Translations under genes and position numbers: made by a program
Assembly (NCBI GenBank): GCA_030431785.1
Contig: JAUIIM010000001.1
Coordinates: 3,323 to 67,322, forward strand
DNA: 64,000 nucleotides
DNA from: Acidimicrobiia bacterium
Lineage (GTDB): Bacteria > Actinomycetota > Acidimicrobiia > Spongiisociales > UBA5794
Direction of reading: 5' to 3'
The notes under the pieces: model-generated
Told to the model about the DNA's origin: nothing
Database searches by the model: none
Seen by the model: only the letters and a program-made list of their open reading frames with translations
Shown: positions 1 through 27,543 of the stretch, in pieces
How positions within the stretch are numbered: position 1 is the stretch's first letter
Layout: every line of letters starts with the position of its first letter

Positions 1-463
1 CATGACGTATGACGAAATGGACGACGATCGGTTCGCGAGGGAACCGGGACTGAACCGTGCTCAGATGGAACTGATCTCATCGAGGACTTCCCTCCACAAC
101 CAGTGCTTCTACTGAACACTCAGCCACTCGTGGATGCTCCGTGCGAGCTCCCTCGCATTCGGCTACGACCTCGATGTCCGAGCGGTCGGCGACCGCACCG
201 TCGACCCCGGGGTGCCCGGTGGTGTGGCGATCCTCGACTTCGTCGATGCACTCCTCTTGCGCGATGACGCCGACCACGAGCGACGAGTCCTCCAAGATCA
301 GGTGGGTTCGGAAGGGCTCGTCGATGCAAGCGGTGTGTTTGCGAACTTCCAGATGATGAATCGCCTTGCAGAAGGGACCGGGATCCCGGTACCCGGGGCG
401 GTGATCGACCGGGAAGCCGACCTGATCGAGGCCCTGGGTTTGCATTCGATTCTCAAGAACTGA
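1..463 (+). CDS. AhpD/carboxymuconolactone-decarboxylase (CMD) family protein, 5'-partial; in-frame TGA at 113-115 (candidate selenocysteine codon; alternatively a nonsense/pseudogene)
   Basis: Frame-2 translation across the TGA reads ...AQMELISSRTSLHNQCFY[TGA]TLSHSWMLRASS..., which matches the CMD core ELIxLRVSxxNxCxYCxxxH with the TGA at the second Cys. The C-terminal FANFQMMNRLAEG resembles the family NxWNRLxxA tail. The ORF track only lists the post-TGA part (134..463). A small bulged hairpin at 132-151 lies downstream of the TGA. The antisense ORF 77..445 is judged a shadow. Confidence 0.5.
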
Positions 464-557
464 TCACCCCGCGAACGTGTCCTCGTCGCGGATTGCGTTG
501 GCGTGTCGGCGCTCCCGGGTTTGTCTACGCTGGGGTCGACGTCAGACAAGGAGCATC

Positions 558-2510
558 ATGAGCGAGTCGGGAATCGAGAATCTGCTGCAGGAAGATCGGC
601 TCTTCCCGCCCCTAGCGGATTTCGTAGCGACTGCCAACACCACCCAGGACCACTTCGACGAGGCTGCCGAGGACTACGAGGCGTATTGGATGCGTCAAGC
701 CCGCGAGCGACTCAGCTGGTTCAAGGAGCCGACGGTCGCACTCAACGACGAGAATGCCCCGTTCTACAAGTGGTTCGAGGACGGCGAACTGAACGTCTCC
801 TACAACTGCCTCGATCGACACCTCGATGCAGGGGGCGACAAGGTCGCCTACCACTGGATCGGCGAGCCCGGTGACAAGCGGACGATCACGTACAACGACC
901 TCGCCACCGAAGTGAACAAGTTTGCCAACGGCCTCAAGTCGCTCGGTGTCGAGCGTGGCGATACGGTCGCCATCTACATGGGCATGGTGCCTGAGCTTCC
1001 GATCGCGATGCTTGCATGTGCGCGCATCGGGGCCGCCCATTCCGTCATCTTCGGTGGGTTCTCTGCCGATGCGATCGTCGACCGCGTAGAAGACGCAGGC
1101 TCGAAACTGCTCATCACCTGCGACGGTGCGTGGCGACGCGGAACCATCGTCCCCCTCAAGGAATCCTGTGACGAAGCGATGTCCAGGACCGAGCTGATCG
1201 AGAACTGTGTCGTCGTCCGCAGGACCGAGCAGGACGTTTCGATGCAGGACGGTCGCGATGTCTGGTGGCACGACCTCATCGCCGACCAAGCCGATACGTG
1301 CGCGCCGGAACACATGAACGCCGAGGACCTGCTGTATCTGCTCTACACGTCGGGGACGACGGCCAAGCCGAAGGGCATCATGCACACGACCGGTGGGTAC
1401 CTCACCGGTGTGGCGACGACGCATTCCCAGGTCTTCGACCTCAAGCCGGGCTCCGATGTCTATTGGTGTGCTGCCGACGTGGGTTGGGTCACCGGGCACT
1501 CCTACATCGTGTACGGCCCACTGACGAATCATGCAACCAGCGTGATGTACGAGGGCACACCGGACTTCCCCGACAAGGATCGTTTGTGGTCCATCATCGC
1601 TGAGTACGGGGTCACCATCCTCTACACGGCACCTACGGCGATCCGGGCGTTCATGAAGTGGGGAGTGGAGTACCCGGAACGCCACGACCTCTCATCGTTG
1701 CGTCTCCTGGGAACGGTGGGAGAGCCGATCAACCCCGAAGCGTGGATGTGGTACCACGAGAACATCGGCGGCGGTCGCTGCCCGATCGTCGACACGTGGT
1801 GGCAGACCGAGACCGGTGGCATCATGATCAGCCCGATACCGGGCGTGACCGCCACGAAGCCGGGCTCGGCGACGAAACCGATCCCTGGCATCTTCGCCGA
1901 GGTGGTCGACACCGAAGGCGATCCCGTCCCCCTCGGCGGCGGTGGGTTCCTGACGATCACGAAACCGTGGCCATCGATGCTGAGGTCGATCTACGGCGAC
2001 GACGACCGATATGTATCCACGTACTGGTCGCGGTATCCCGGTCGATACTTCCCCGGCGACGGGGCCAAGTTCGACGAGAACGGCTACATCTGGGTCCTCG
2101 GTCGCGTCGACGATGTCATGAACGTGTCCGGGCACCGCATTTCGACGATGGAGGTCGAGTCGGCGTTGGTGTCACACCCCTCCGTTGCAGAAGCTGCGGT
2201 CGTCGGTGCGACCGATGATCTCACGGGTCAAGCCATCGCAGCGTTCGTCACGCTCCGCGGTGACGCTCAGGGCTCCGACGAGCTCCACGAGGAGCTTCGC
2301 CAACACGTCGCTGACAAGATCGGTGCGATCGCCAAACCCAAGTCGATCATCTTCACCCCCGATCTCCCGAAGACTCGTTCGGGGAAGATCATGCGGCGAC
2401 TGCTCAGGGACATCTCGGATCATCGGGCGCTTGGCGACGTCACGACGCTGGCGAACGCCGATGTCGTACAAGCCATCGCCGATCAGCAGACCGAGTACGA
2501 CGACGACTGA
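558..2510 (+). CDS. acs: acetyl-CoA synthetase (AMP-forming)
   Basis: YTSGTTAKPKG AMP-binding motif and full-length Acs-like sequence. AAGGAG RBS 5-10 nt before ATG 558; the track start at 477 is probably too long. Confidence 0.9.
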   Translation: MSESGIENLLQEDRLFPPLADFVATANTTQDHFDEAAEDYEAYWMRQARERLSWFKEPTVALNDENAPFYKWFEDGELNVSYNCLDRHLDAGGDKVAYHWIGEPGDKRTITYNDLATEVNKFANGLKSLGVERGDTVAIYMGMVPELPIAMLACARIGAAHSVIFGGFSADAIVDRVEDAGSKLLITCDGAWRRGTIVPLKESCDEAMSRTELIENCVVVRRTEQDVSMQDGRDVWWHDLIADQADTCAPEHMNAEDLLYLLYTSGTTAKPKGIMHTTGGYLTGVATTHSQVFDLKPGSDVYWCAADVGWVTGHSYIVYGPLTNHATSVMYEGTPDFPDKDRLWSIIAEYGVTILYTAPTAIRAFMKWGVEYPERHDLSSLRLLGTVGEPINPEAWMWYHENIGGGRCPIVDTWWQTETGGIMISPIPGVTATKPGSATKPIPGIFAEVVDTEGDPVPLGGGGFLTITKPWPSMLRSIYGDDDRYVSTYWSRYPGRYFPGDGAKFDENGYIWVLGRVDDVMNVSGHRISTMEVESALVSHPSVAEAAVVGATDDLTGQAIAAFVTLRGDAQGSDELHEELRQHVADKIGAIAKPKSIIFTPDLPKTRSGKIMRRLLRDISDHRALGDVTTLANADVVQAIADQQTEYDDD

Positions 2511-2522
2511 ACGGGTTCTGGT

Positions 2523-2572
2523 GCAACCCAGAGCTAGGTCGGGGAATATTCACCGTTCTAGCTCTGGGTTGC
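2523..2572. repeat. REP-like palindromic element copy 1 (15-bp arms GCAACCCAGAGCTAG / CTAGCTCTGGGTTGC around a GAATATTC-containing loop)
   Basis: Near-identical to the element at 47047..47096 in inverted orientation. Lies between the acs stop and the S10 peptidase start. Confidence 0.8.
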
Positions 2573-2590
2573 GAAAGGCAGAGGAGTGAG

Positions 2591-4108
2591 ATGACTGACG
2601 AGACGAAGAAGGACGCGACGGCGAAGTCCGAGGAGTCCAAGGACGAGAAGAAGCCTGAACCTCCTCACTTCGAGGATGCGCTGTCGACCACGCAGCACTC
2701 GATCGAGATCGATGGTGATCGGATCGGCTACACCGCAACGGCGGGTCGGATCGTCCTCAAGGAAGACGACGAAACGAAGAAGGCCTCGTTCTTCTTCACC
2801 GCCTACACGAAAGACGATCAGGATCCCGCGGATCGCCCGATCGTCTTTGCGTTCAACGGTGGCCCCGGTTCCTCGTCGGTCTGGCTCCACCTCGGGGTAT
2901 TCGGACCGAAGAAGGTCGTTCTGTCCGACGATGGCAACCTCGAGAAGCTTCCCGGGCAGTTGGAGGACAACCCACAGACGTTGCTGACCCATGCCGATCT
3001 GGTGTTCATCGATCCTGTCTCCACCGGCTACACCCGCGCGATCGAGAAGGACGAGGAACGTTCGTATCACCACTTCGAGAAGGACATCGAGTCCGTGGCT
3101 GCCTTCATCCGGATGTATCTCACCAGGTTCGGACGATGGTCATCACCGAAATTCCTCGGCGGAGAGTCGTACGGCACGACCCGTTCGGTGGGGCTCGCCG
3201 GTCATCTCATGTCGCGATATGGCATCTTCCTCAACGGAGTCATCCTCGTCAGCTCTGTGCTGAGCTTCCAGACCATCGGTCTCGACTCAAGTTCGTACAC
3301 GTTCCACAGAGGCAACGAACTGCCGTACGTCGTGTATCTCCCGTCCTACGCAGCGACCGCGTGGTTCCACAAGGCGCTCGATGAGGACCTCCAATCGAAG
3401 GAGCTGACGGAACTCTTGTCAGAGGTCGAGGAGTTCGCCGAGACGGACTACCTCTTGGCGCTCCAGGCAGGATCACGCCTCGATGCCGATAAGGCCGACG
3501 AGATCGCACAACGGCTTGCCCGCTACACGGGCATCGACAAGGACTTCGTGCAGAAGTCCAACCTCAGGATCGAGAAGTTCCACTTCATGAAGGAACTCCT
3601 GCGCGATGAAGGCTGGACCGTAGGCCGCCTCGACTCACGCTATCGCGGCGTCGACCGGTACACGGTCGGCTCGATGCTTGAGCACGATCCGTCTCTCGAC
3701 GTGTGGATGTCTCCGTACACGTCGATGTTCAACGACTACGTCAGACGTGAGCTCGAATACGAGAGCGACCTCGTCTACGAAATCCTCAACCCGAAGGTGT
3801 GGCCGTGGAACTACGAGAAGTTCCAGAACGCATACGTCGAAGTGTCCGAGACCCTGCGTGACACCATGTCGAAGAATCCGGGGATGCTCGTATACGTCGC
3901 AAGTGGCTACTACGACCTTGCCACCCCGTACTTTGCGACCGAGTACACGCTCGCCCACCTCGGCATTGAGGACGCACTGCGGGACAACATCGAGGTGTCG
4001 TACTTCGATGCCGGTCACATGATGTACGTGCACAAACCGTCCATCGAACGGCTAGGACCCGAGCTGCGGGCGTTCGTCGAGAAGGCGACTGCGTCGACAC
4101 AGGCGTAA
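2591..4108 (+). CDS. S10-family serine carboxypeptidase-like peptidase
   Basis: FAFNGGPGSSS and GESYGT motifs typical of peptidase S10. GAGGAG RBS before ATG 2591. Confidence 0.8.
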   Translation: MTDETKKDATAKSEESKDEKKPEPPHFEDALSTTQHSIEIDGDRIGYTATAGRIVLKEDDETKKASFFFTAYTKDDQDPADRPIVFAFNGGPGSSSVWLHLGVFGPKKVVLSDDGNLEKLPGQLEDNPQTLLTHADLVFIDPVSTGYTRAIEKDEERSYHHFEKDIESVAAFIRMYLTRFGRWSSPKFLGGESYGTTRSVGLAGHLMSRYGIFLNGVILVSSVLSFQTIGLDSSSYTFHRGNELPYVVYLPSYAATAWFHKALDEDLQSKELTELLSEVEEFAETDYLLALQAGSRLDADKADEIAQRLARYTGIDKDFVQKSNLRIEKFHFMKELLRDEGWTVGRLDSRYRGVDRYTVGSMLEHDPSLDVWMSPYTSMFNDYVRRELEYESDLVYEILNPKVWPWNYEKFQNAYVEVSETLRDTMSKNPGMLVYVASGYYDLATPYFATEYTLAHLGIEDALRDNIEVSYFDAGHMMYVHKPSIERLGPELRAFVEKATASTQA

Positions 4109-4192
4109 GTCAGAAGCCGGAACTCAGAAGTCAGACCACGGCGTCGGATCGATGATCGAGGATCGATCAAGGAGCGAGGCGACCGGTCGACT

Positions 4193-5758
4193 TCACTCCG
4201 TTCTCTGTTCTCCGTTGTCCGTTGTCTGCGACCTGAGGTAGCGAGCTACGGCCGCTGCGGCCGTCTTGCCTGAACCAACGGCGGGCGTCATACCCCCACC
4301 ACCGACCCACGCACCGGCGAGGAAGAGGTTCGGGATCGGCGTCCGGGGACTCCGTCGGAATCGCTGATTCACGACCGTCTGCTCCCGGCCGTACAGGGCG
4401 CCCTCGGGCTGGAGCATGTAGCGGGCGTTGGTCAACGGGGTTCCCACGTGGGCCGTGACGATCGAGTCACGGAGACCGGGAATACGCCGCTCGGCACGGG
4501 CGATGAGCTTCTCCGCAGCCTCCTGCTTGACACGCTGATACGACTCCTTCACCCGATAGTTCTCGAGGTCCCCGCCCGTACCCCACGCGTCACGATGATC
4601 CCACGGCGCAAGCGTCGTCAACACGAGCACGGTGCATCCGGCCGGGGCGTTGTCGGGGTCGGTCACGGTGTAGTTCGAGATGATCATGCCAGCGTCCTCG
4701 AAGCGTCCCTCGAGGGCCGCTGTGTAGTCGGCCTCGAGGTCGTACGTCGGCATGTCGAAGTACTCGTGATGGTCCCAACCCTCGGCCGCAAGATCGCGAT
4801 CAACCCCGAGGTGGACGACCAGGCTTGACAATGATGGTGTCTCCGACTGAGCGGTCTCTCCCCAGTCGCCGTCGACCAGGCCGTCGGGCAAGAGCGCGAG
4901 CGTCGATGTCGGGGAGGCATTCGAGACAACCGCACGGGCTCGGACAGTCAGCCCCTTGTTCGTCGTGACGACGACGCCTTCATCGGCCGGTTCGATGCGC
5001 TCTACATCGTTTCGGAAATGGATCTCGCCACCGTGCTCTTCGATGACCTCGGCGATGGCCCAGGTCATCGTTCCCGAACCACCGGTCGGATACCAGGCGC
5101 CCGCTGTCGTATACGAGAGGATGGTCATGGCGAACTGGCCAGCCGAGACCCGGGACGGCGGCAATCCGAGGTACCCCCACAGCGTGGAGACGAGCGCCTT
5201 CGCTTCTGGGGAGTCGAGATACTGGTCGATGAACACCGCCCATGGCACGTTGAACGCGACCGCCATGTCGGGGAAGTCGGTGAGCATCTCAGCGTCGTCC
5301 GGTCGGTGACCGCTTCGCCGGACCTCGGTGTATCGGGCGACGTCGTGCCCGACACGTTGGATCGCAGCGAAGAGCCCCCTGAAACCCGCTCCCTCTCCCG
5401 GCAGAACGTCCGAGGCGACGGCGGCGTATTGGTCGAAATCCGTGGGAATCGCCACCTCGAAGTCCGGGAATCCCACGGTGTAGAACGGATCGAGCTCGTT
5501 GAACTCGATTCGATCCATGATTCCGAGAGATTCGAACATGGGCCGAGCCCAACCGCCCTCTCCCAACCCGTCCAGTGCGTGCAACGCAACCTCGAACCGG
5601 AACTCCTCCTTGCGGAAGAAGTGTGCGTATCCGCCTGGCTTCGAGTGATGCTCGATGACGACGACCTTGTATCCGCGCTCTTGGAGATGCCGTGCGGCGG
5701 AGAGCCCCCCGAGTCCCGCTCCCACGATCACGACATCTGTTTCGATGTCGGGATTCAT
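4193..5758 (-). CDS. FAD/NAD(P)-binding oxidoreductase, phytoene-desaturase (CrtI-like) family
   Basis: N-terminal VVIVGAGLGGLSAARHL dinucleotide-binding motif. The start overlaps the upstream AI-2E gene stop (ATGA). Confidence 0.8.
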   Translation of the reverse strand: MNPDIETDVVIVGAGLGGLSAARHLQERGYKVVVIEHHSKPGGYAHFFRKEEFRFEVALHALDGLGEGGWARPMFESLGIMDRIEFNELDPFYTVGFPDFEVAIPTDFDQYAAVASDVLPGEGAGFRGLFAAIQRVGHDVARYTEVRRSGHRPDDAEMLTDFPDMAVAFNVPWAVFIDQYLDSPEAKALVSTLWGYLGLPPSRVSAGQFAMTILSYTTAGAWYPTGGSGTMTWAIAEVIEEHGGEIHFRNDVERIEPADEGVVVTTNKGLTVRARAVVSNASPTSTLALLPDGLVDGDWGETAQSETPSLSSLVVHLGVDRDLAAEGWDHHEYFDMPTYDLEADYTAALEGRFEDAGMIISNYTVTDPDNAPAGCTVLVLTTLAPWDHRDAWGTGGDLENYRVKESYQRVKQEAAEKLIARAERRIPGLRDSIVTAHVGTPLTNARYMLQPEGALYGREQTVVNQRFRRSPRTPIPNLFLAGAWVGGGGMTPAVGSGKTAAAAVARYLRSQTTDNGEQRTE

Positions 5759-7023
5759 GGATCTCCGACCACTGCGACCGGGGCTTCATCGGGGAACGGA
5801 TCGCGGTCCAAGAGTTTCGCCCACAGGTAGACACCGACGTCTCGCAGCGACGCGATGATCGGCACGGCGAGCAGGGAGCCGAGGAGTCCACCGACCTGGA
5901 AACCGACGATCAGACCGATCAGCACGATCGCCGGCCGGAGCTGAACAGCCGATCCCATGACCTTCGGTGCGATGATGTTCGCCTGCGCTTGGACCACAAC
6001 GACATAGATACCGGCCACGATCAGTGCGAACCAGTAGGACTCCAGATCCGGCCATCGCGTAGACCCCGACAGCAATGCCGCGAGGACACCAGGGATCGCA
6101 GCAAGAATCGGCCCGAACGTAGGGATCATGTTCAGGACGACCATGATCGCGCCCATGAGAAACGCACCGGGAAGTCCGACCACGAACAACACGACGAAGA
6201 CCAGAAAACCTGTGATCAGAGAGTTCACGAGCTGCCCGTACAGGTAGCCGGTCCAGACGCGTTTTTGTTTCCGCATCATGATCCACGCGTCGCGCTCGTA
6301 GCCGGGAGGGAACTGCTCGGCCATCGCACCGTGGAACCGCTCGCTGTCAGCGTTGAGGTACATCGAGATCAAGACCGTCGCAATCGCCGACGTCACCATC
6401 GCGAGGATCACGCCGGCAACCGTACGAACCCCACGGAACGAGTTCGAGACGACGTCAAGCACGACCTGGATGTCGAGCACGCCGGGTTGCTCCGTTCCAC
6501 CCACCGGATTCCCGAGGTCGTCGACCACGGCCGTCATGTCGATCGTGAGACCCCAGATCCGAAGGTGGTTGTTCTCGTCGATCTCCTCCAGGATCCATTC
6601 ACGGCCCTCGTTGACCAGCCCGACCGGGTCGAGCTCGATAACCGATTCCACGATGGAGTTCAGGACCAAGAACCCGAAGCCAAGGGTTCCGAGAAAAACC
6701 ACGAGGTACGCGACGAGCAGGGCGAGGCCACGTGGAATGTGGAGCCGGCGATGGCCAAACCGGATCAGCGGGGCAATCAGGAAGGCGATCAGGGAGGCCA
6801 GTGCAACCACACCGAGGACGTTCCTCACCAGATAAAGGCCGATCAGCGAGACGACGAACAACATGAGAATGACAGCGATCTTCGCTGCGTTGCTCCAAGG
6901 AGGAGAAGGCGGGTATGTGGCCACCTCCCCGGCCCTCTCGACGACGCCACCATCGGTGTCGGACGCTGACTCCGCCGCTGTGTTCTCGTCGGGCGTATCG
7001 CTCATGACGCTACGGTAGAGCAT
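5755..7023 (-). CDS. AI-2E family (PerM/UPF0118) transporter
   Basis: Multi-TM protein with AI-2E-like topology. Alternative start at MSDTPDEN (7005). Confidence 0.75.
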   Translation of the reverse strand: MLYRSVMSDTPDENTAAESASDTDGGVVERAGEVATYPPSPPWSNAAKIAVILMLFVVSLIGLYLVRNVLGVVALASLIAFLIAPLIRFGHRRLHIPRGLALLVAYLVVFLGTLGFGFLVLNSIVESVIELDPVGLVNEGREWILEEIDENNHLRIWGLTIDMTAVVDDLGNPVGGTEQPGVLDIQVVLDVVSNSFRGVRTVAGVILAMVTSAIATVLISMYLNADSERFHGAMAEQFPPGYERDAWIMMRKQKRVWTGYLYGQLVNSLITGFLVFVVLFVVGLPGAFLMGAIMVVLNMIPTFGPILAAIPGVLAALLSGSTRWPDLESYWFALIVAGIYVVVVQAQANIIAPKVMGSAVQLRPAIVLIGLIVGFQVGGLLGSLLAVPIIASLRDVGVYLWAKLLDRDPFPDEAPVAVVGDP

Positions 7024-7043
7024 CGACGATCACAGGGCTACAG

Positions 7044-12593: not shown

Positions 12594-13245
12594 GGGCGAC
12601 GTTGCCTTCGTCGGAATCCTCAACGAAGCCGTGCCCTCCCGCAAGCGGTCGGGTTCGATCGATGACGTGTCCGGGTTCGACGTCCTGGTCACCGACGGTG
12701 AGGCGGACACGACGGATCTCCTCGCACAGGCCTCCGTGGCAGGGTGTCCCCTCGTCGTCTGGCCCGAACTCGCACGAATCGACTCGTCCGCAACTGTCCC
12801 GGTCGTCCACGACGCCAACGTGTCCGGCGCCCTCACCGCGGCGCTCGCGACACACCCAGCCACCGAGGTCAGCGTCGACGACACGCTGACCGTCGCGTGG
12901 ACGGAGCCAGGCAAGCCGCTGAAGCGGGGTCATCCACTGCCGTTTCCCGATCCGATCGGCGTGCTGTGGGGGAAGAAGAGAGACGACGGCCGATACGTAG
13001 CGTTCCGTGACGACGAGTGGGCCGGTGCAGTGATCGACATCGATGGAGCGAGTGGTCGCCGAATCGTCGGGGTCGCCGACCACGGGCCGTATCTCGAAGC
13101 CCTCATCCTTGCCGGTGTCACGATCGCAGCGGCTCGCGGCCACTACGCGACCGGAACCCATCCAGCGTCCTCTCAAGCCGAGCATCTCCTCCCCATCTTC
13201 GACGAACTTGAGACGGAGATCGCCGTCTGGCGTTCGGGCATCTGA
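12502..13245 (+). CDS. hypothetical protein (Rossmann-like N-terminus MRVAVDTRTEVG)
   Basis: Balanced composition and high GC3; a more likely ATG start is at 12529. The stop overlaps the next gene start (ATGA-type coupling). The antisense ORF 12181..13185 is rejected. Confidence 0.6.
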   Translation: MGATRAVRAMRVAVDTRTEVGNRMVRTLLAEGDVAFVGILNEAVPSRKRSGSIDDVSGFDVLVTDGEADTTDLLAQASVAGCPLVVWPELARIDSSATVPVVHDANVSGALTAALATHPATEVSVDDTLTVAWTEPGKPLKRGHPLPFPDPIGVLWGKKRDDGRYVAFRDDEWAGAVIDIDGASGRRIVGVADHGPYLEALILAGVTIAAARGHYATGTHPASSQAEHLLPIFDELETEIAVWRSGI

Positions 13246-15215
13246 TGCGACGACAGGTCACGCTCCTCGTCGCGGCAGTCGCGGTCGTGATGACGGCCTG
13301 TACGCCCTCATCGGACCCGGTCGAGACCACCACCACGCTGCCATCGGTCGCCGGCACGATCGATGCGCCCGAGTTCCCGCAAGGGATGGACTGGCTCAAC
13401 ACCGCAGCTCCCATCGCGATGAGCGACCTCAAGGGGAAGGTCGTCCTCCTCGACTTCTGGACCTACGGATGCATCAACTGCATCCACATCCTCCCCGACC
13501 TGCGACGCCTCGAGGAGGAGTTCGCCGAGGAATTGGTCGTGATCGGCGTCCACTCGGCGAAGTTCACGAACGAAGGTGCCACCGCGCAGCTGGCGGAAGT
13601 GGTCCAACGGTATGACATCACCCACCCCGTCGTGAACGACAAGGACTTCCTGATCTGGTCATCGTGGGGGGCGAACGCGTGGCCGACCGTCGCTGTCGTC
13701 GACCCCGCAGGGCGTGCGGTCGGGGTGCGTGCAGGCGAAGGGGTCTACGAAGCGATCCAACCGGTGATCGCACAACTCGTCGAAGAGTTCGATCGTGCCG
13801 ATGCCATTCGCCGTGAACCCCTCGAGCTGACACTTGAGGCAGAGTCCTCACCCTCGACTCCCCTCCGGTACCCCGGCAAGGTGCACGCGAGCGATGGACG
13901 TCTCTTCGTGGCAGACACCGGACACCACCGAATCGTGGAGGTCGATCCCGACACGGGCGAGGCGATCGGCGTGTGGGGATCGGGACAGCGCGGGTTCACC
14001 GACGGCGATGCCGCGACCGCTTCGTTCAGCGACCCACAAGGGCTTGCCTTCGACAGCTCCACGAGCGTCCTGTACGTCGCCGACGTCGGAAACCATTCGG
14101 TCCGATCGATCGACACTTCGACCGGGGAGGTCACGACCCTGGTCGGTGACGGCTCCCAGGGGTGGCCACCGACCGGTGGGACACTCGACGAGACAAGGCT
14201 CGCTTCACCATGGGCCCTCGAACTGGCCGAAGGACGACTCTTCGTCGCCAACGCGGGAACGCATCAAATCTGGTCGGTCGATCTCGATCGCGGCCTCGCA
14301 GAGCCGCTGATCGGCTCCGCCAGGGAGGGAACGCTGAACGGGCCGTTCGCCACCTCCGAACTCGCTCAGCCGAGTGGTCTCGCCCTCTCCGACGACGGAA
14401 AGCTCTACTTCGCCGACTCCGAATCCAGCTCAGTGCGGGTAGGGGACCTCGCCAACGGGCAGACATCCCTCGTCGTCGGCGGTGACGAAACACTCTTCGA
14501 CTTCGGAGATCTCGACGGCTCGGGCAACGAAGCCCGTCTCCAGCATCCTCTCGGTCTCGCGTTCGGTAGCGCCGGCGTCCTCTACGTGGCTGACACGTAC
14601 AACTCGAAGATCAAGCGCATCGACACAGGAACCGGAACCGTCACGTCATGGCTCGGCTCGGAACCGGGGTGGGCGGATGGAGATGCACCACTGTTCGACG
14701 AGCCCGGGGGCCTCGCTTTCGACGGCACGACCCTCTGGGTCGCCGATACGAACAATCACTCGCTCCGAACCATCGACCCGGTGACGGGAACTGTCAGTAC
14801 GTTGATCGTCACCGGCCTCGAGAAGTTCGAACCACCAACTTCCTACGCCGGTCCGGTCACCGAGATCGCAGGGTCCATCACCGCTTCGGCGGGACCGGGC
14901 ACGATCACGCTGGACTATGCGTTGCCCGACGGACACAAGGTGAACCCCGATGCGCCGTCGGCGGTGTCGATCACCGGCATCGGGATCGAACTGGCCGGAG
15001 ACGGTGACCTTACGGGCGCATCCTTGCCCATCGACGTGCCGGTCGAGTTCAGCGAGGGCTCGGGCGACGCCTACATCGACGTCAACCTCGTGTATTGCGC
15101 CGAGGAAGCGGAGAGCCTCTGCTTCATTGACCGAATGCGCTTCGTCGTGTCCCTCGTCGTAGGTCCGGCGGGCCCATCGAGCCAGATCACGATCGGGCGC
15201 GACGTGGAGAACTAG
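13245..15215 (+). CDS. secreted/lipoprotein thioredoxin-like (TlpA/ResA redoxin) domain fused to NHL-repeat beta-propeller
   Basis: Lipoprotein signal (...VVMTACTPSS), LLDFWTYGCINCIHILP CxxC redoxin motif, then about six NHL-type repeats (GHHRIVEVD, VADVGNHSVRSID, VANAGTHQIWSVD...). Confidence 0.85.
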   Translation: MRRQVTLLVAAVAVVMTACTPSSDPVETTTTLPSVAGTIDAPEFPQGMDWLNTAAPIAMSDLKGKVVLLDFWTYGCINCIHILPDLRRLEEEFAEELVVIGVHSAKFTNEGATAQLAEVVQRYDITHPVVNDKDFLIWSSWGANAWPTVAVVDPAGRAVGVRAGEGVYEAIQPVIAQLVEEFDRADAIRREPLELTLEAESSPSTPLRYPGKVHASDGRLFVADTGHHRIVEVDPDTGEAIGVWGSGQRGFTDGDAATASFSDPQGLAFDSSTSVLYVADVGNHSVRSIDTSTGEVTTLVGDGSQGWPPTGGTLDETRLASPWALELAEGRLFVANAGTHQIWSVDLDRGLAEPLIGSAREGTLNGPFATSELAQPSGLALSDDGKLYFADSESSSVRVGDLANGQTSLVVGGDETLFDFGDLDGSGNEARLQHPLGLAFGSAGVLYVADTYNSKIKRIDTGTGTVTSWLGSEPGWADGDAPLFDEPGGLAFDGTTLWVADTNNHSLRTIDPVTGTVSTLIVTGLEKFEPPTSYAGPVTEIAGSITASAGPGTITLDYALPDGHKVNPDAPSAVSITGIGIELAGDGDLTGASLPIDVPVEFSEGSGDAYIDVNLVYCAEEAESLCFIDRMRFVVSLVVGPAGPSSQITIGRDVEN

Positions 15216-15781: not shown

Positions 15782-18211
15782 CTAGTCCTCGTTCTGTGCG
15801 ATGGCGAGGGCGGTGAGGGTTGCTCCGTCGGCAAGGCTCATGACCTTGACCCCGGTGGTGTCCCTCCCCTGGCGTGAGATCTCCTTGGCGCCCTGACGGA
15901 TCACGATGCCGTCCGAGGACGTCATCACGACCTCGTGGTCCTCCGTCACGGCACGGGCCGCAGCGACGAGACCACGAACCTTCGTGAGCTTCATCGCCTT
16001 CACGCCCTTGCCGCCACGACCTTGCGTGCGGAAGTTCGAGACCTTGGTGCGCTTGCCGTAGCCACCGGTCGTCAGGATGAGCACGTCCTCCTCGTCATCG
16101 GCGACTGCCGCGGCGACCACCGAGTCCTCCTCATCCTTGAGGCGGATCCCGATCACCCCCTGGGAAGCACGGCCTGTCGGGCGGACGTCATCCTCGGAGA
16201 AGCGGATGCCTTGCCCGTTGCGGGTGAACATCATCAGATCCTTCTCGCCATTGGTGCGGCGCACGGCTACGACCTCGTCGTCATCCTTGAGGTTGATCGC
16301 AACGAGCACTTGATTTCGTGAGTCGTAGTCGGCGAACTTGGACTTCTTGACCATGCCGGACTTGGTGAACATCACGAGATACTTGTACGACTCGTAGTCG
16401 CGGGTATCGATGATCGCCTCGATCCGTTCGTCCGCCTCCAGGGGGAGGACGCTCTGGATGAGCGACCCGCGCGCAGTGCGGTCCTTCCTGGGCAATTCGT
16501 GTGCACGTACTCGGTAGACCTTGCCGCGATTCGTGAAGAACAGCAGATAGGCGTGGGCGGACGTGTGGAGCAGGTGCTCGATCACATCCTCTTCTTTCAG
16601 GTTCGAGCCCTTCACGCCGCGTCCGCCGCGTCCTTGCCTCCGGTAGGAGGATGCGAGCACAGACTTCACGTATCCGGAGGAGGTGACGCTCACGACGAGT
16701 TCTTCGTCCGCGATCATGTCCTCCAACGACATCGTCCCGGTGTCCGGGATGATCCTGCTACGCCGCGAGTCCGAGAACTTCTCCCGGATCTCCGTCAGCT
16801 CCTCGCTGATGAGCAGACGGCGCTTCTCCTCGTTCGCCAAGAGGTCGTTGAGGTAGGCGATCGTCGCTTCGAGCTCCTCGAGTTCCTCGCGCAGCTTGTT
16901 CGTCTCGAGTGCGGTCAGGCGACGAAGCGGCATGTCGAGGATGTGGTTCGCCTGGATCTCGGAGAGGTCGAAGTTCTCCATCAACGCAGTACGTGCCGCA
17001 TCGACGTTCGCCGACGAACGGATGATGCGGACGACTTCGTCGATGTTGTCCAGGGCGATGAGCAAGCCACGGACGATGTGCGCCCTCGCCTCTGCCTTCT
17101 CGAGACGGAACCGTGAGCGTCGCTCGATGACCTCGAGCTGATGGTCGACATAGTGATGGACGAGCTGTGCGAGGTTGAGTGTGCGGGGGACTCCGTCCAC
17201 GAGCGCGACGTTGTTGACCGAGAACGAGTCCTCCAGCTGACTGTGCTTGAAGATCAGGTTCTGGACGACCTGGACGTTGGCACCACGCTTGAGTTCGATC
17301 ACCATGCGCGTCCCATTACGGTCGGATTCATCGCGAAGGTCCGAGATGCCCTCGATCACCTTGTTGCGGACCGCATCCGCGATCTTCTCCATGACACGGT
17401 CGCGGGACACCTGATACGGGATCTCGGTGATGACGATGGCATGTCGGTCCTTACCGATCTCCTCGACATCGGTGACGGCACGCATCTTGATCGAGCCGCG
17501 TCCCGTCAGGAGGGCGTCCTTGATGCCCTTGTCACCGACGATGTAGGCACCCGTCGGGAAGTCTGGACCCTTGACGAACTCCATCAACTCCTCAGCCGAG
17601 GCGTCCGGATGATCGAGTGCATGGAGGACCGCGTCACATACCTCGCCGAGGTTGTGTGGAGCCATGTTCGTCGCCATACCGACGGCGATACCGGTGGAAC
17701 CGTTGACGAGAAGGTTGGGGAATCGGGCGGGGAGCACTTGCGGCTCGTCGCGCTCACCCGAGTAGTTGTCCACGAAGTCGACGGTGTCCTCGTCGATCCC
17801 ATCCATCATGTGCGCAGCAAGCTTGGCGAGCCGAGCCTCGACGTAGCGCATCGCCGCAGGCGGATCGTCGACCGTACCGAAGTTCCCCTGCGGATCGATC
17901 AACGGATACCGAAGAGCGAAGTCCTGTCCCAAACGCACCATGGAGTCGTACACGGCCTCGGGAGAGTGCGGGTGGAACCAACCAACGACATCACCGACCA
18001 CACGGGAGGCCTTGCGATAGGGGGTTCCGGGCCGGATGCCGCTGTCCCACATCGAGTACATCACGCGGCGGTGCACCGGCTTCAGGCCATCACGAACATC
18101 CGGGAGGGCACGCGAGACGATGACGGACATCGCATACTCGAGGAACGAGTCGCGCATCTCCTGGTTGATGTCGATCGCTTGGAACTCTTCTTGTATCGGT
18201 TCTTCAGGCAT
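15782..18211 (-). CDS. gyrA: DNA gyrase subunit A
   Basis: Full-length GyrA homology ([23 protein letters not shown]; C-terminal beta-pinwheel). Confidence 0.97.
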
Positions 18212-18241
18212 TGATCTTCCCTGTGTTGTCCGTGTCGGCGC

Positions 18242-20206
<1,965 letters not shown>

Positions 20207-20279
20207 TTATGACACGCTTGTAAGTATAGCCGGTACAGCAGCGTATCCCTTTATTCCCATGGCTTTTCGGGTCGATGGG

Positions 20280-20633
20280 CTAGCGGACGATCTTGATGCG
20301 GACATGGGCAACCAGCCCATCCTCGAAATGCTCGCCGATCGCTGTTTTGAGGTCTTCGATCTGGTACTTGAGGACGGTCGCCGCAGTGCCGTCGGGGACC
20401 TCGACGAGCAGTGTTCGATCCTTGACGCCGACCGGGGTCCCATAGGTCACCCAGTCCGGAGGAGCGATCGATTCCCAGTCGTTGACGATGTCGCCATGTC
20501 GGATGTCGACGCCGACCGAGGCCTTCTCGATGATGGTCCCGAGCAGCGACCGGATCTGCTTCGGCTGTCTGGGTTCGTTGTCGCGGAGATACTTCGCTCT
20601 CACGTCGTCACCTTTCCGTCGTCGACGAGCCAA
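20280..20633 (-). CDS. DUF721/DciA-like protein (Rv0004-like)
   Basis: Conserved position between recF and gyrB; overlaps the recF 3' end; start uncertain. Confidence 0.7.
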   Translation of the reverse strand: MARRRRKGDDVRAKYLRDNEPRQPKQIRSLLGTIIEKASVGVDIRHGDIVNDWESIAPPDWVTYGTPVGVKDRTLLVEVPDGTAATVLKYQIEDLKTAIGEHFEDGLVAHVRIKIVR

Positions 20634-21691
20634 CGCCGTCCTCCGATCGGAACTTCATCTTCGCGCGCCGTAGTGACAAATACCTGACCGCTCGGCATGA
20701 GATCGAGGACTCGTTCGGCCCGGGACTTGTCCAATTCGGAGAAGACATCGTCGAGCAGCAACACCGGGACATGGTCGCCCAAGTGATCAACCAGCCGGTA
20801 CGCACCGATACGCAAGGCGAGCGCCGTGGTCCGTTGCTCACCCTGGGAGGCCCGGTAGCGCGTATGGCGACCATCGAGATGGAGTTCGGGTTCGTCCCGA
20901 TGAGGACCGACGGTCGTCACGCGCAACCGGAGATCGTCCGGACGCGCCTGGCCGAGGGCCTCGACGAAGGCTCCGACGAGGTCGTCGTACTCGAGGACGC
21001 CGTCAGAGCCCCATGTAGAGCGATACGCCCACCGCAGCGTCCCTTCTCCCCCGACGACCGTGTACGCCTCTTCAAGATGGGGCTGAAGGGCTGTGGCGAC
21101 GTTCCGTCGGTGGATCAACACGTTGGCGCCGGCCTGGGCGAGTCGCTCGTCCCAGACCTCGAGCGTCACCGGATCGGTCTCACGCCCCTCCTGCCGCAAC
21201 AGCGTGTTGCGCTGACGAACCGCCCGGTCGTAGTCGGACTGGTCGGCGACGGCGCGAGGCCACAGTCGGGCAGCCAGGTCGTCGAGGTAGCCACGGCGTA
21301 TCGCCGCACCCCGTTTGATGACATCGAGGTCATCGGGCAGAAAGGCGACGATCGGGACGAGCCCGAGGAGGTCTCGCATCCGCTTCGGCTTCTTGCCGTT
21401 CACCAGGATCGTCCTGCGTCCTTCTAGCGGAAGCTCGCACTCCACCAATGTCTCAGAGGCCTTGCCGACATACTCAGCACGGACGATGGCTCGATCCGCA
21501 CCGGTACGGACCAGTGCGTCATCGGGCACACCGCGGAAGGAGCCGGTCAGACCGGTGTACCCGATCGCCTCGAGAATCGATGTCTTTCCTTCACCGTTGT
21601 CCCCGACGAGGACGTTGATCCCGGGCTCCGGTTCGAACCGCAGGCTGTCCCAGGAGCGGAAGTCCCTCAGCTCGATCCAGCTGAGCTGCAT
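20600..21691 (-). CDS. recF: DNA replication and repair protein RecF
   Basis: N-terminal Walker A VLVGDNGEGKTSILEA and C-terminal LLLDDVFSELD. Confidence 0.95.
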   Translation of the reverse strand: MQLSWIELRDFRSWDSLRFEPEPGINVLVGDNGEGKTSILEAIGYTGLTGSFRGVPDDALVRTGADRAIVRAEYVGKASETLVECELPLEGRRTILVNGKKPKRMRDLLGLVPIVAFLPDDLDVIKRGAAIRRGYLDDLAARLWPRAVADQSDYDRAVRQRNTLLRQEGRETDPVTLEVWDERLAQAGANVLIHRRNVATALQPHLEEAYTVVGGEGTLRWAYRSTWGSDGVLEYDDLVGAFVEALGQARPDDLRLRVTTVGPHRDEPELHLDGRHTRYRASQGEQRTTALALRIGAYRLVDHLGDHVPVLLLDDVFSELDKSRAERVLDLMPSGQVFVTTAREDEVPIGGRRWLVDDGKVTT

Positions 21692-21697
21692 CGCCGC

Positions 21698-22777
21698 CTA
21701 CAGACGGACGGGCATCAAGAGGTAGCGGAAGTCCTCGTCCGACGCACCGTGGATGAGCCCGGGCTTCAGTGGATCCGATGTCTCGATCACCACCTGCTCG
21801 TCGGCGACGGCGCTGATGCCATCCATCAAGTACCGGGTGTTGAACGCGATCGTCATCTCGTCACCCGAGTAGTCGGCCTCGAGGAGTTCGGACGCTTCAC
21901 CGACCTCTTGACGGATCACCGAGAGCTCAACACCACCCGAGTGCATGGCGAGCCGGACCGGGATGTGGTCCTCGGCGACGAGCGCAGCTCGTCCGACGGC
22001 CTCGATCAACCCTGCCTTGTCGACGGTGAGGCGGTTCGAGTGTCCATCGGGCAGCAGCTGGCGATAGTTCGGGAACGACGCATCGATGATCCTCACCGTC
22101 AGGCGACCCTGATCCGTGACGAAGGAGGCCTCCCGTTCACCGAGGATGACCTGCATCGAGCCTCCGCCGACCGTTCGCCCGAGTTCGCGCAATGCCCGGT
22201 ACGGGATGAGACGTGATCCCTCCGTTGCGACACCCGGCACCTCGCGGACCGCAAGCCGATACGAGTCGGTGGCGACGAGGCGCAGGCTTTCCTCGTCGGC
22301 CTCGAAGAGCACACCGGTGAGCGTGGGACGTGCATCGTCGGCAGACGCAGCGACGCCGACCTGACCGAGTGCTTTGATGAGCGCATCGCCGTCGACCGTG
22401 ATCTCCTCGCCCCCGGAACCGTCCGAGACCTTGGGGAAGTCCTCGGCAGACATCTCCCTGAGTTTGAACTCTGGTCCGTTCCCGGTGATGACCACGTGGC
22501 CGTCTTCGGTGGAAAGGGTCACGGCACCGGAGGGAAGTTTCCGAACGGCATCGGCGGCGAGCTTTGCCGGGATGACGGTCGATCCTTCCTCGGTGACCTC
22601 GACTTCGAGATACGTTCGGACCGTGACTTCGTTGTCGGTACCGGTGACCGTCAAACGGCCGCCAGCTACCTCGCACAGGACACCCTGAAGGATCGGCAAG
22701 GGGGACCGGGTGCCCACTGCTCGACCGGCTCGGGTGAGCACATCTGCCAGATCGTCTCGTTCTGCTCTGATTCGCAC
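21698..22777 (-). CDS. dnaN: DNA polymerase III beta sliding clamp
   Basis: Three-domain clamp with DnaN homology. Confidence 0.95.
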   Translation of the reverse strand: MRIRAERDDLADVLTRAGRAVGTRSPLPILQGVLCEVAGGRLTVTGTDNEVTVRTYLEVEVTEEGSTVIPAKLAADAVRKLPSGAVTLSTEDGHVVITGNGPEFKLREMSAEDFPKVSDGSGGEEITVDGDALIKALGQVGVAASADDARPTLTGVLFEADEESLRLVATDSYRLAVREVPGVATEGSRLIPYRALRELGRTVGGGSMQVILGEREASFVTDQGRLTVRIIDASFPNYRQLLPDGHSNRLTVDKAGLIEAVGRAALVAEDHIPVRLAMHSGGVELSVIRQEVGEASELLEADYSGDEMTIAFNTRYLMDGISAVADEQVVIETSDPLKPGLIHGASDEDFRYLLMPVRL

Positions 22778-22791
22778 GTCGGTCCTATCCC

Positions 22792-22970
22792 TGAACTTCT
22801 ATTGCTGCTGTCTGGATCATTTGAAAGAGTAGTAGTGGTAGTAGGCCCTGTGGATTGTGGATGAACGTCCGAAAGCCTTGCGGTGTCGGCGTTTCTCTAC
22901 CCACAGGGGGTGTGGATGGATCAAGGGTTGTCCACGGCGCGTTCCGTCGGTGCGTTCAGCGTGTGGATAT
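22792..22970. other. oriC (dnaA-dnaN intergenic): AT-rich DUE candidate, DnaA-trio TAGTAGTGGTAGTAG (22830-22844), GC spacer, and at least six DnaA boxes
   Basis: Boxes read as TGTGGATTG, TGTGGATGA, TACCCACAG, TGTGGATGG, TTGTCCACG and TGTGGATAT. The trio sits immediately 5' of a tandem box pair, as in the basal unwinding module. Confidence 0.8.
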
Positions 22971-22973
22971 CGA

Positions 22974-24362
22974 TCATCTTGTCCTCAGCTGTTGGGTGAT
23001 CTCCGTGACCTGGTCATAGATGTCCTTGTCGGTCTGGAGGAGATTGGTGATCTTCTCGACGGCGTGCATCACCGTCGTGTGGTCCCGGCCGCCGAAAGCT
23101 GCACCGATACGTGGCAGAGAGAGACCCGTCTGCTCACGACAGATGTACATGGCGACCTGGCGATGCCGAGCGAGAGGCTGTCGACGTGAGGGCCCCAGAA
23201 GCTCGGAGCGTGGGACCTCGTAGTACTGGCTCACGGTCCCGATGATCGAGTCAGCGGTCAGCGGGGCTGCCTGCTGGAGCTGGACGACGTCACGGAGAAC
23301 GTTCGCCGCGAGGTCGACCGTGACGGGCTCGGACGTCAGCTTGGCGAACGCCGTCACTCGGGTGAGTGCTCCCTCGAGCTCTCGGACGTTCTCGGCGATG
23401 TTCTCGGCGATGAAACCCAGCACCTCCTCGGGGATGCGCTGGTCACCCATCGCAGCGTTCTTGCGGAGGATGGCAAGGCGTGTCTCTACGTCAGGTCGTT
23501 GGATGTCCGTCGTGAGACCCCACTCGAACCGGCTGCGGAGTCGATCCTCGATCGTACGCAACTCCTTTGGAGCGCGGTCGGACGAGATCACCAACTGATT
23601 GCCGGCCTCGTACAACGAATTGAACGTGTGGAAGAACTCCTCGAGCACCATCTCCTTGCCCTCGAAGAACTGGACGTCGTCGAGGAGCAGGATGTCGACC
23701 TTGCGGTAGCGCGCCTTGAAGTCGTCCATCTTCTTGCGACGGATCGAATTGATGAAGTCGTTGAAGAACGTTTCCGAGGTCACGTACTTGACGACGGCAC
23801 CGGGAGACAGTTCGAGGCGGTGTTGACCCACGGCGTGGAGTAGGTGGGTTTTGCCAAGCCCGGATCCTGCGTAGATGAACAGAGGGTTGTAGTGGCGACC
23901 GGGTTTCTCGGCGACGGCCTGGGCGGCTGCGTGGGCGAATCGATTCGACGATCCGACGACGAAGTTGTCGAACGAGTAGCGGGCGAGCAGGTTCGAGGTG
24001 TCAGAGGGGGACGGCGGTTCGTCGATCCGGGAACCGATGTGATCGTCGAGGGAGGGTTGATATGGGCCCTCATCCTCAAGGGCCTCGGTTGCTTTCTTCT
24101 CGTTGACCGAGATCGTGACCTCGAACTTTCCCGACCACACCGATGAGGCGATCTCCCCGATCTGGTGGGTGTAGTTGTCCCGAACCCACGAGGCGTTGAA
24201 GCGATTCGGGGCTTCGAGCCTCAGGACGTCGTCGTCCCGCTCGACATCGAGCGGTTTGATCCAGGTTTCCCACTTCGCAGCGCCGATCACGTCGCGCATT
24301 CTGCTGTGGAAAAGCTCGATCTTCGAGTCCACCGTCTCGGGACTCGCTTGTGTAGCAGCCAC
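22974..24362 (-). CDS. dnaA: chromosomal replication initiator DnaA
   Basis: AAA+ Walker [13 protein letters not shown]; C-terminal DNA-binding domain. Confidence 0.97.
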
Positions 24363-24404
24363 CTTGTAATCCTCCGTGCCTCTTTGTCTTCAACAAGCCA
24401 AGCA

Positions 24405-24690
24405 ATTCACCTGTCCACACACCTATCCACAGGATGTGGAGAAGATGCGCCCACGGGGCTCGTTCGGTCGAGCCCGTGAGCTCAGCTCCGTGGGAAGAGC
24501 GGGTGGCGAACCCGTCAAGAGCGACGGCGAGTGTATGCACCGTTTGCGGAGCACTTCAAGAGTGGCAAAACCGCCGCAAGACCGTCCTGTGGATAGCGAC
24601 CGAATCGGCGGAGAACCCTTACGCCCCTTGACTTGTACGCCGAGCGAGATACCCCTCGGGCGGCTGTTGTGCACAGCGATTTCCACAAAA
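24405..24690. promoter_or_regulatory. DnaA-box cluster upstream of dnaA / rpmH promoter region
   Basis: TGTCCACAC, CTATCCACA, TGTGGATAG and TTTCCACAA read directly. Confidence 0.6.
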
Positions 24691-24834
24691 CCGCCTTGAA
24701 CGGAATTTCGCGACCGCTCCCGACTTTTCGCGGACCGGATCACTACTGACGGTTTGATGGACTCGGGACCTAGACTGCTCCCGACCCGTCATACGGCGGG
24801 TTCACCGCGTCCCGCATCTCAGGGGTACCTCATC

Positions 24835-24969
24835 ATGAAACGTACGTATCAGCCGAACAAACGGCGTCGCAAGCGCAAGCACGGATTCCGGTCGCGCATG
24901 CGCACCCGTGCCGGTCGTGCGACGATCAAACGTCGTCGCTCGAAGGGCCGTCAGGAGCTCTCTGCCTAG
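24835..24969 (+). CDS. rpmH: 50S ribosomal protein L34
   Basis: [28 protein letters not shown]... Confidence 0.92.
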
Positions 24970-25309
24970 GCAGGGACATATCTCCCTTCCGGGAGGTGGG
25001 TTCGCTCGTGTGTATCGGACGGGAATCCGTACCAGGAAGGGCTCGATCCTGGTGATCGAGACGCCGAGCGACCAACCCGATGCGACGCCGAGGGTCGGTG
25101 TGGTAGCAGGACGAAAGGTAGGACATGCCGTACAACGCAACAGGGCGAAACGTCGCCTGCGTGAGGCTGTCCGTCGCTGTCCACCGGATCCCGGGCTCGA
25201 CATCGTCATCACGGCACTCGATGACCTGTCTTCGGTCTCGTTCGACCGCTTGTGTTCCGACCTCACCCGTGCGTTCGAGGCAGGACGCATGAAGCGGGTG
25301 GCCCGATGA
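24908..25309 (+). CDS. rnpA: ribonuclease P protein component
   Basis: RnpA-like LP..R....FARVYRTG and [10 protein letters not shown] motifs. No ATG downstream of the rpmH stop, so the gene starts inside rpmH (ATG 24908 or GTG 24917) or at a non-canonical codon. Confidence 0.7.
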
Positions 25310-25596
25310 GCGAGCACACCGTGTCGTCCCCCCGACCGTCACTGGCGCGCCGCATTCTCTTGGCACCGATCCGTTGGTACCAACGATTTCTCTCCCCCCT
25401 TCTGGGGGCAAATTGCCGATACCACCCGACCTGTTCGCGGTACACCTATGAGGCAATCGAGATCCACGGCCTCAAGGGCGTGTGGATGGGCATCCGAAGG
25501 ATCGCCCGCTGTCATCCGTTCCACGACGGAGGATTCGATCCGGTCCCCGGGTCGCAGTCGTCCGTCCCCGACTCGATCGAGGGGAGTTCGGCGTGA
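25306..25596 (+). CDS. yidD: membrane protein insertion efficiency factor YidD
   Basis: [24 protein letters not shown] motif; ATGA overlap with rnpA. Confidence 0.85.
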
Positions 25597-26531
25597 GTTT
25601 CGCCCCCTGGGAGTGGTTGTTGAGCCTGCTCGGCACCCTGCTCTCGTTCTACTACGACCTAATTCCAGAATATGGAGTTTCCATCATCCTGCTGACTTTG
25701 ACGGTCAGCCTTCTGCTCTTCCCGCTGACGCTCAAGCAGACGCGTTCCATGAAGGCGATGCAGGAGGTCCAGCCTGAGGTCAAGCGTCTCCAGAAGGAAC
25801 TCAAGGGAGACAAGGAAGAACTCAACAAGCAGCTCATGGCGCTCTATCAGGAGAAGGGCGTCAACCCGGCCGCTGGATGTCTCCCCCTCCTCGTGCAGAT
25901 GCCGATCTGGTTTGCCCTCTATCGCGTGCTCTGGCAAGGAAACGGTATCCCCGAGGATTCGACGCTCAAACAGGTCCTCGACGCCGCCAACGACATGCTC
26001 TACACACGCGGTGATGACGGGAACCTCACCGGCACCCTGAAAGCCGGTGTCGACATCACCTCGGATGCCTTCGAGCACGTGCGCTTTCTCGGGATGAACC
26101 TCTTGGTGCGACCGTCACAGGCGGTCGATTTCGGAGACATCATCGGATCTCTTCCGTACATCGCCTTGATCGGCGTGATCGTAGTTGCCGGATTTTACCA
26201 GCAAGTCCAAACGACCCGCCGCAAGAAGACCGATCAGAATGGCGATCAGAACAACCAGATGCAGGGCGTACAGAACGCCATGAAGATCATGCCCGTGGTC
26301 TTCGGGTTCATCTCCTGGAACTTCGTCACTGGTCTCGGTCTCTACTTCGCCACCTCCAACCTCTTCCGCGTCGGACAACAGGCGATCATCCTCGGCATGG
26401 ACGACGATGATCCGGACGATGCCGGATCGACCGCAAAGGAGAAGTCGGACCCGGACACCCCGGATGCCCCGAAATCCAACGGTCCCTCGCCAAACGCGAG
26501 CAAGAAGCGCAACCGCAGACGAAGGAAATAG
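25593..26531 (+). CDS. yidC: membrane protein insertase YidC
   Basis: GTG start overlapping the yidD stop (GTGA); YidC/Oxa1 TM core with a basic C-terminal tail. Confidence 0.9.
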
Positions 26532-26540
26532 AGAAGCCTC

Positions 26541-27404: not shown

Positions 27405-27440
27405 GCGACTCAGTACGGAGTACTCAATACCAGTACACAG

Positions 27441-27468
27441 AAGGGGCCCCGGGAAACCGGGGCCCCTT
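27441..27468 (+). terminator. GC-rich hairpin AAGGGGCCCCGG-gaaa-CCGGGGCCCCTT after jag
   Basis: Perfect 12-bp stem followed by cttctgcttgtttc. Confidence 0.5.
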
Positions 27469-27473
27469 CTGCT

Positions 27474-27489: not shown

Positions 27490-27543
27490 CTGCTGAGTAC
27501 ACAGTGCCCAGTACTCAGGTCCCCAGAACCCAGAGGCAGCCGT

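Follow-up and report, generated by a model that had tools for sequence, protein, structure and literature searches.

A 64,000-nucleotide stretch of actinobacterial DNA (hereafter the window) begins inside a gene whose in-frame TGA, at positions 113-115 of the forward strand, very probably places selenocysteine (Sec) at the redox centre of a protein related to AhpD. We put the probability at about 90% that window 2-463 is the 3′ part of a selenoprotein gene of NCBIfam family NF041238, in which UGA 113-115 is decoded as Sec and not read as a stop. Five observations support this reading directly: family membership, the UGA column, the downstream frame, the Sec/Cys pairing and an RNA-level constraint on a hairpin beyond the UGA. 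The family has been known as a selenoprotein since 2005 and is curated by NCBI, and the window gene is an ordinary member of it.

Frame 2 of the forward strand is open from base 2, at the window edge, to a TGA at 461-463, and its sole interruption is the TGA at 113-115. Our retranslation thus agrees with the earlier note, which had followed the frame through that single TGA into the open reading frame (ORF) at 134..463. The frame-2 translation is MTYDEMDDDRFAREPGLNRAQMELISSRTSLHNQCFY-stop-TLSHSWMLRASS...FANFQMMNRLAEGTGIP...ILKN-stop, and the local protein around the TGA is ...PGLNRAQMELISSRTSLHNQCFY-stop-TLSHSWMLRASS.... Bases 104-118 read TGC TTC TAC TGA ACA, that is C-F-Y-U-T with U as the in-frame TGA, within the longer motif E(68-70)-x11-C(104-106)-F-Y-TGA(113-115)-T-L-S-H(125-127).

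The window edge cuts the gene. Positions 2-463 hold the C-terminal 153 codons (residues 168-320) of a gene of about 320 codons, and the N-terminal 167 residues are encoded upstream of base 1. Codons 168-204 (2..112, +) form the start of the catalytic AhpD-like domain and include the invariant PGLNRAQMELISSRTS, Glu190 (68-70) and Cys202 (104-106); the Glu, Cys, Phe and Tyr of this part are invariant in our homolog alignment (A1). The UGA (113..115, +) would be residue 205, the U of CFYUT. Codons 206-320 (116..460, +), which match NF041238 in a conserved frame, complete the catalytic domain with His209 (125-127) and the FANFQMMNRLAEGTGIP tail, and frame translation gives the TGA at 461..463 (+) as the true stop of the gene.

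Public sequences supply the missing part and carry the same interruption. A 204-residue protein (P0012) from a 146,797-bp NCBI contig is 100% identical over its overlap with the window, its C-terminus matching 2..112, and a second protein from that contig (P0034) is exactly window ORF 134-460. A Logan contig (L001) agrees with the window at 599/600 bases, the TGA included. We took the missing N-terminus from P0012 and L001, outside the window, for scoring at full length. The mechanical ORF list has only 134..463 (+, 109 aa) at the locus, a spurious ORF that is the C-terminal fragment of the selenoprotein gene (100% identical to P0034). The earlier note had held that the ORF track splits the gene wrongly; it is split here and in the public databases alike.

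The rebuilt 320-residue protein (P0012, U and the window part) scores 229 bits against NF041238 with Cys at the Sec position and 220.6 bits with X, where the curated equivalog cutoff is 175. By this profile comparison the protein is a member of the family, the curated cutoff being exceeded. NF041238 is named 'AhpD_rel_CFYUT, alkylhydroperoxidase-related (seleno)protein', a name that matches the C-F-Y-U-T of the window, and the claim that AhpD-like proteins are an established selenoprotein family is borne out. The window fragment alone, with Cys for the stop, gives 139.4 bits (E = 1.7e-40) because it spans just profile positions 211-354 of 357. The full-length match to the 357-position profile starts at position 60 and the protein has only about 320 residues, so that its extreme N-terminus is shorter or divergent. 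Otherwise we see no difference of substance from the family: a CxxU motif, a SECIS-like hairpin past the UGA, and the existence of both Sec and Cys forms are held in common.

The family itself was reported in the Sargasso Sea selenoproteome as 'hypothetical protein 1', with four Sec sequences, a CXXU motif, a predicted SECIS element and a count of Cys homologs (Zhang, Fomenko & Gladyshev 2005, PMC1088965). A 2026 review (PMC13188914) equates NF041238 with 'hypothetical protein 1' and lists the family as a selenoprotein. In the sea, AhpD-like CxxU proteins rank among the most abundant selenoprotein families (PMC2398784).

General models of the superfamily recognize the protein less readily. The window fragment falls just below threshold for Pfam CMD (PF02627; 22.1 bits against a gathering score of 23) and for TIGR00778 (22.3 bits against 27.8), and far below it for TIGR01926 (33.8 bits against a cutoff of 81.8). 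It does match the AhpD-like structure 6k40 (E = 3.4e-6). As the PDB matches and NF041238 support homology, the sequence comparisons identify the protein as a divergent member of the AhpD/CMD superfamily, not a non-member. The AhpD/CMD catalytic core that the earlier note had recognized therefore stands on the structural matches and NF041238, with the Pfam model just missing it. The signature E-x11-C-x-x-C-x3-H is present, with U replacing the second Cys, and E190, C202, U205 and H209 are invariant across homologs. Alignment to the AhpD-like structures 6k40, 2prr and 2pfx sets the second Cys of their CxxC in the U column and the conserved His at +4, exactly where the TGA and His had been placed within CxxCxxxH. 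The same alignment upholds the proposed family C-terminal tail, as an MxNR tail.

Is the TGA peculiar to this genome? We scanned reference genomes and metagenomes with an alignment of N-terminal fragments, a single-protein scan before it having found nothing, and recovered 36 related loci at 35-59% identity; of the 14 that come from genomes, 13 are in Acidimicrobiia/Actinomycetota metagenome-assembled genomes. All 36 have TGA right after C-F-Y, and none has TGY, TAA or TAG, a recurrence well beyond what chance would give. The codon that follows C-F-Y was not selected for by the search, because the query for the tblastn confirmation consisted only of the part upstream of the UGA. Wherever a contig reaches far enough past the UGA, the frame stays open for 113-124 codons, and the blocks T[LM]SH and FGNFxMMNRVAEGTGIP are conserved in it. 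Third positions vary there while the amino acids stay, which indicates that the frame is conserved as protein.

We searched 1.84 billion cluster representatives exhaustively with a profile and obtained 803 relatives, 430 of them at E <= 1e-10. Among the best 150 of the 803, 135 end right after C-x-x (mostly CFY), 12 read through and 3 are fragments. The 12 read-through representatives have Cys (9), Gly (2) or Ser (1) at the UGA position, and the Cys-form homologs are full-length single chains. The check by homolog alignment that had been proposed thus returns a TGA column kept throughout the 36 loci and full-length Cys counterparts.

These data bear on the alternative named in the earlier note, a nonsense pseudogene or a sequencing error, to which we add an error of assembly; the TGA would then be a defect in an AhpD-like gene that once had Cys. 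Such a lesion would look to a gene caller as this locus does, since the callers take the TGA as a stop and split the gene. It would have to recur in 36/36 diverged homologs, each then followed by an intact, conserved frame, and at the same position in 135 of the best 150 cluster representatives. Moreover, a separate assembly carries the identical base, and the synonymous constraint on the downstream hairpin described below is unexpected in a pseudogene. The mixture of JGI, ENA, NCBI and Logan sources excludes an artefact of a shared assembly pipeline. We give the pseudogene or error explanation next to no credence. A reassigned genetic code is ruled out because UGA is otherwise an ordinary stop, indeed the commonest in the window, where it ends 23 of the 47 called genes, the selenoprotein gene itself included. 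Conservation of the column, the Sec/Cys pairing and the ordinary use of UGA elsewhere are three independent lines, and on this comparative evidence we conclude that the UGA is decoded.

A different possibility is that translation does stop at the UGA and reinitiates at the AUG at 134-136 to yield the 109-aa ORF, giving two polypeptides that assemble. That AUG (alignment columns 22-24) follows the UGA by 18 nt and reaches at least 90% conservation, and no Sec machinery was seen in the window; both findings would suit two genes. However, the AUG lies within the 5′ arm of the hairpin, and its conservation is explained by that position. If there were two genes, the six codons from the UGA to the AUG would not be translated, yet they keep their protein sequence (T-[LM]-S-H-V-R) while their third positions vary, and the invariant His among them matches the catalytic His of CxxCxxxH. 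Furthermore, two of the related loci have no in-frame AUG there (L008, V-Y-A-L; L015, T-W-R-L), and the Cys-form homologs are single chains. Two separate products are highly improbable on this evidence, and we return to a single chain with a decoded UGA.

The earlier note had proposed a small bulged hairpin as the SECIS element. The SECIS-like hairpin, GGAUGCUC-CGUGC-GAGCUCC (132..151, +), starts at the 17th nucleotide after the UGA, from which 16 nt (116-131) separate it. Its core stem pairs 136-139 with 145-148 around an apical loop at 140-144 that contains an invariant G141; A134 is bulged and U135/U149 form a mismatch. We aligned, without gaps, 34 unique segments of the UGA plus 57 nt, and the hairpin falls in columns 20-39 (window 132-151). 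Neither its core GCUC-N5-GAGC nor the G in the second position of the loop (column 29) ever varies. The loops found in the family are CGUGA, CGUGC, CGGGN, AGUUN and AGGUG. The bSECISearch rules expect a loop about 16-37 nt from the UGA and a G early in it. Here the loop begins 24 nt after the UGA, and 132-151 shows what is looked for in a bacterial SECIS, a hairpin shortly after the UGA with a G in its apical loop.

Covariation is uninformative for this hairpin because the stem never varies: neither two alignment registers nor RNAalifold gave usable covariation, and RNAalifold returns the 4-bp core alone. We used a synonymous-codon control in its place. Across 24 full genes we took the 34 columns in which the amino acid is conserved to 90% or more and has codons that are at least fourfold degenerate. 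Thirty-two of these columns use 3-6 different codons each (entropy 1.0-2.3 bits). Only two are synonymously frozen: at U+8 Leu is always CUC (24/24), and at U+11 Ser is AGC in 23/24. These two codons form the 5′ and 3′ arms of the hairpin stem. Because just these two stem-arm codons are frozen, the control shows what we read as purifying selection on the RNA beyond the protein constraint, at the place and with the spacing expected of a bacterial SECIS.

The folding energetics do not speak for the hairpin in this sequence. In isolation it is weak, at -7.3 kcal/mol (family mean -6.8), and the local fold z-score is only -1.52. In the 60-nt context of the window a non-conserved competitor, GUGCGAG/CUCGCAU (-16.2 kcal/mol), dominates and leaves the core helix at 3% ensemble probability. 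The proposed hairpin is thus conserved, synonymously constrained and located at the 17th nucleotide, whereas the window's own minimum-free-energy fold favours another, non-conserved hairpin. Rfam at its gathering threshold gave no match anywhere in the window; bacterial SECIS elements are poorly represented in Rfam.

The SECIS of the E. coli fdhF type is likewise a hairpin just past the UGA in the coding region; its small apical loop carries a conserved G(U), and beneath the upper stem one base is bulged or mismatched. In fdhF an upper stem-loop of 17 nt, set 11 nt behind the UGA, is enough as a minimal element. The window hairpin differs in its 16-nt spacer, its 5-nt loop and its invariant stem of only 4 bp (6-7 bp with the bulge or mismatch), and SelB binding to it is putative.

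We looked for the Sec machinery in the window and in related loci. NCBIfam scans of the 47 called genes found no selA, selB or selD in the 64 kb window, and ARAGORN found no tRNA gene of any kind there, tRNA-Sec included, nor a tRNA-Sec in 37 related loci. A tblastn search with E. coli SelA, SelB and SelD had no match in 281 kb (the window and about 217 kb of related loci). The search covers the window and the related loci, and it shows that the machinery is not linked to the selenoprotein gene.

This result is what favours a recoding of UGA to a residue other than Sec, either to Cys by a tRNA-Sec-like tRNA or by hairpin-promoted near-cognate read-through (to Trp, Cys or Arg), as the Sec machinery was seen neither in the window nor in the related loci. 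Mukai and colleagues are said to have described, in 2017, the recoding of UGA to Cys by Sec-like tRNAs in some bacteria. Against this stand the position itself, that of a redox Cys, where Sec is the norm, and a hairpin with the hallmarks of a bacterial SECIS (spacing, and a G early in the apical loop). A Cys would come more simply from a UGY codon, as in the nine Cys homologs. Furthermore, the family is curated as a selenoprotein (NF041238; PMC13188914), and a lineage of the same class has the full machinery: in Actinomarina, also of the Acidimicrobiia, selA, selB, selC and selD occur in 84/84 complete genomes (preprint 10.64898/2026.04.03.716425). Insertion of a residue other than Sec is very unlikely in our estimation. 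Since no Sec machinery was seen for the source organism, one may also imagine that this Acidimicrobiia lineage decodes UGA non-canonically, by a Cys-charged Sec-like tRNA or hairpin-stimulated read-through, or, more mildly, that a divergent SelB recognizes the invariant 4-bp hairpin as a SECIS of unusually small size; we regard this as quite a long shot. Selenocysteine at residue 205 remains the preferred reading.

Scanning the window for further genes with an in-frame TGA turned up antisense shadows and, besides these, a single junction, at 53381-53383 (-). This second candidate is rejected. Its TGA separates in-frame ORFs of 228 and 580 aa that are unrelated by Pfam (a His_Phos_1 histidine phosphatase, and a surface protein with SLH and leucine-rich repeats), as at an ordinary gene junction.

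How might the gene be expressed? From the above we infer decoding by SelB and a SECIS in the source organism. A ribosome arriving at the UGA would meet the hairpin 16 nt downstream, to which SelB-GTP-Sec-tRNA(Sec) would be bound, and Sec would be delivered to the A site. Another 115 codons would then be translated before the real stop at 461-463. The predicted product comprises two all-helical AhpD-like domains, an N-terminal one without a redox motif and a C-terminal one with E-x11-C-x-x-U-x3-H; it would thus be a tandem AhpD-like protein whose second domain alone is redox-active.

The N-terminal half is known to us from an AlphaFold model of the 204-residue N-terminal fragment only, in which residues 129-204 have low confidence. 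The model suggests that this half is a second, degenerate, redox-dead AhpD-like domain. A comparison of the N-terminal and C-terminal halves with hhalign is not significant (E = 0.026, probability 1.9%).

The classic AhpD-like selenoproteins (COG2128/TIGR01926 'AhpD-like 1' and PF02627 'AhpD-like 2'/CMD-domain) have the same fold, with Sec at the second Cys of CxxU and the E...CxxU...H signature (PMC2398784 table). They are single-domain proteins of about 180 aa, whereas the window protein has an extra N-terminal AhpD-like domain of about 165 residues that lacks a redox motif. The AhpD of Mycobacterium tuberculosis (PDB 1GU9/1KNC) has Cys and not Sec, is 177 aa long, forms trimers and has AhpC and lipoamide as partners, and its sequence similarity to the window protein is remote. 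Sestrin-2 (PDB 5CUF), a eukaryotic leucine sensor and stress protein, lacks Sec and has no sequence similarity to the window protein; the resemblance between the two comes from the model of the first 204 residues only.

In AhpD the second Cys is the nucleophile and is activated through a His/Glu relay. By analogy, Sec would make the nucleophilic attack and Cys202 would resolve it, the catalytic cycle would pass through a Cys202-Sec205 selenenylsulfide, and Glu190 and His209 would serve as the proton relay. A role as a selenol/thiol oxidoreductase, in peroxide or disulfide reduction, is on this analogy the most likely.

Gene order offers no further hint. In 15 loci, the window among them, the next gene downstream is that of acetyl-CoA synthetase (acs), in the same orientation. 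The gene directly upstream in 16 loci encodes a DUF1684 protein (PF07920, E ~1e-42), though this is not so in L001, the closest relative of the window. A crtI-family desaturase and an AI-2E-family transporter come next after acs in 6-7 loci. This synteny around the selenoprotein gene is conserved across the Acidimicrobiia (window 426-7029; L002, L008, L010, L026, L030 and L032). M. tuberculosis AhpD works with AhpC, whereas no AhpC or Prx partner is linked to the window gene; there is no Prx, AhpC or Trx gene beside it, the syntenic neighbours being acs and DUF1684, and these give no clue to the substrate.

Binning has assigned one of the syntenic loci, L002 (CAXMSN010000004.1), to 'uncultured Kiloniellales' (Alphaproteobacteria). 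The CFYUT gene of L002 shows 56% identity to the query and is followed by acs, crtI and AI-2E genes as in Acidimicrobiia; the contig is probably mis-binned, because that identity goes together with a synteny common to the Acidimicrobiia loci.

The practical point of these findings is one of annotation. Gene callers split the gene at the UGA, so the full-length protein is invisible in public databases. There, 135 of the best 150 representatives (of clusters at 50% identity) are stumps of about 205-215 aa that end in C-x-x, and the C-terminal pieces of about 110 aa are filed separately as hypothetical proteins without a Pfam domain. The scientific gain is small, the family having been reported in 2005 and having a curated NCBI model named for its motif. 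Our additions are modest: synonymous freezing pins the SECIS of the family to a very small hairpin, and the model hints at a redox-dead N-terminal AhpD-like domain.

The window as a whole comes from around the chromosomal origin of an actinobacterium with 62% GC. The origin region (15785-29958) includes, on the reverse strand, gyrA (15785-18211), gyrB (18245-20164), dnaA (22977-24362), recF and dnaN, and, on the forward strand, yidC, jag, rsmG, parA and parB. About 1.1 kb without a called gene (24389-25452) probably holds oriC together with rpmH and rnpA. The window also encodes an actinobacterial-type CCA-adding enzyme and a 'hi_GC' deazaflavin-dependent nitroreductase-family protein.

Three further loci deserve mention. 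At 31049-32393 (-), a thioredoxin gene (an ORF of 163 aa with an N-terminal extension of about 60 residues as called) and a thioredoxin reductase gene adjoin an ECF sigma/anti-sigma pair (32688-34096); the trxA and trxB products, encoded 30 kb from the selenoprotein gene, are possible reductants of the selenoprotein. At 13245-15212 (+) lies a 656-aa redox protein without an in-frame TGA, in which an N-terminal thioredoxin-like/AhpC-TSA (ResA-like) domain is joined to NHL beta-propeller repeats. Finally, a giant ORF of at least 2054 aa (57837-63998, +) runs past the end of the window; it contains SdrD-like repeats and fimbrial-type domains that form isopeptide bonds (TIGR04226, NF012181), and probably encodes a surface adhesin.
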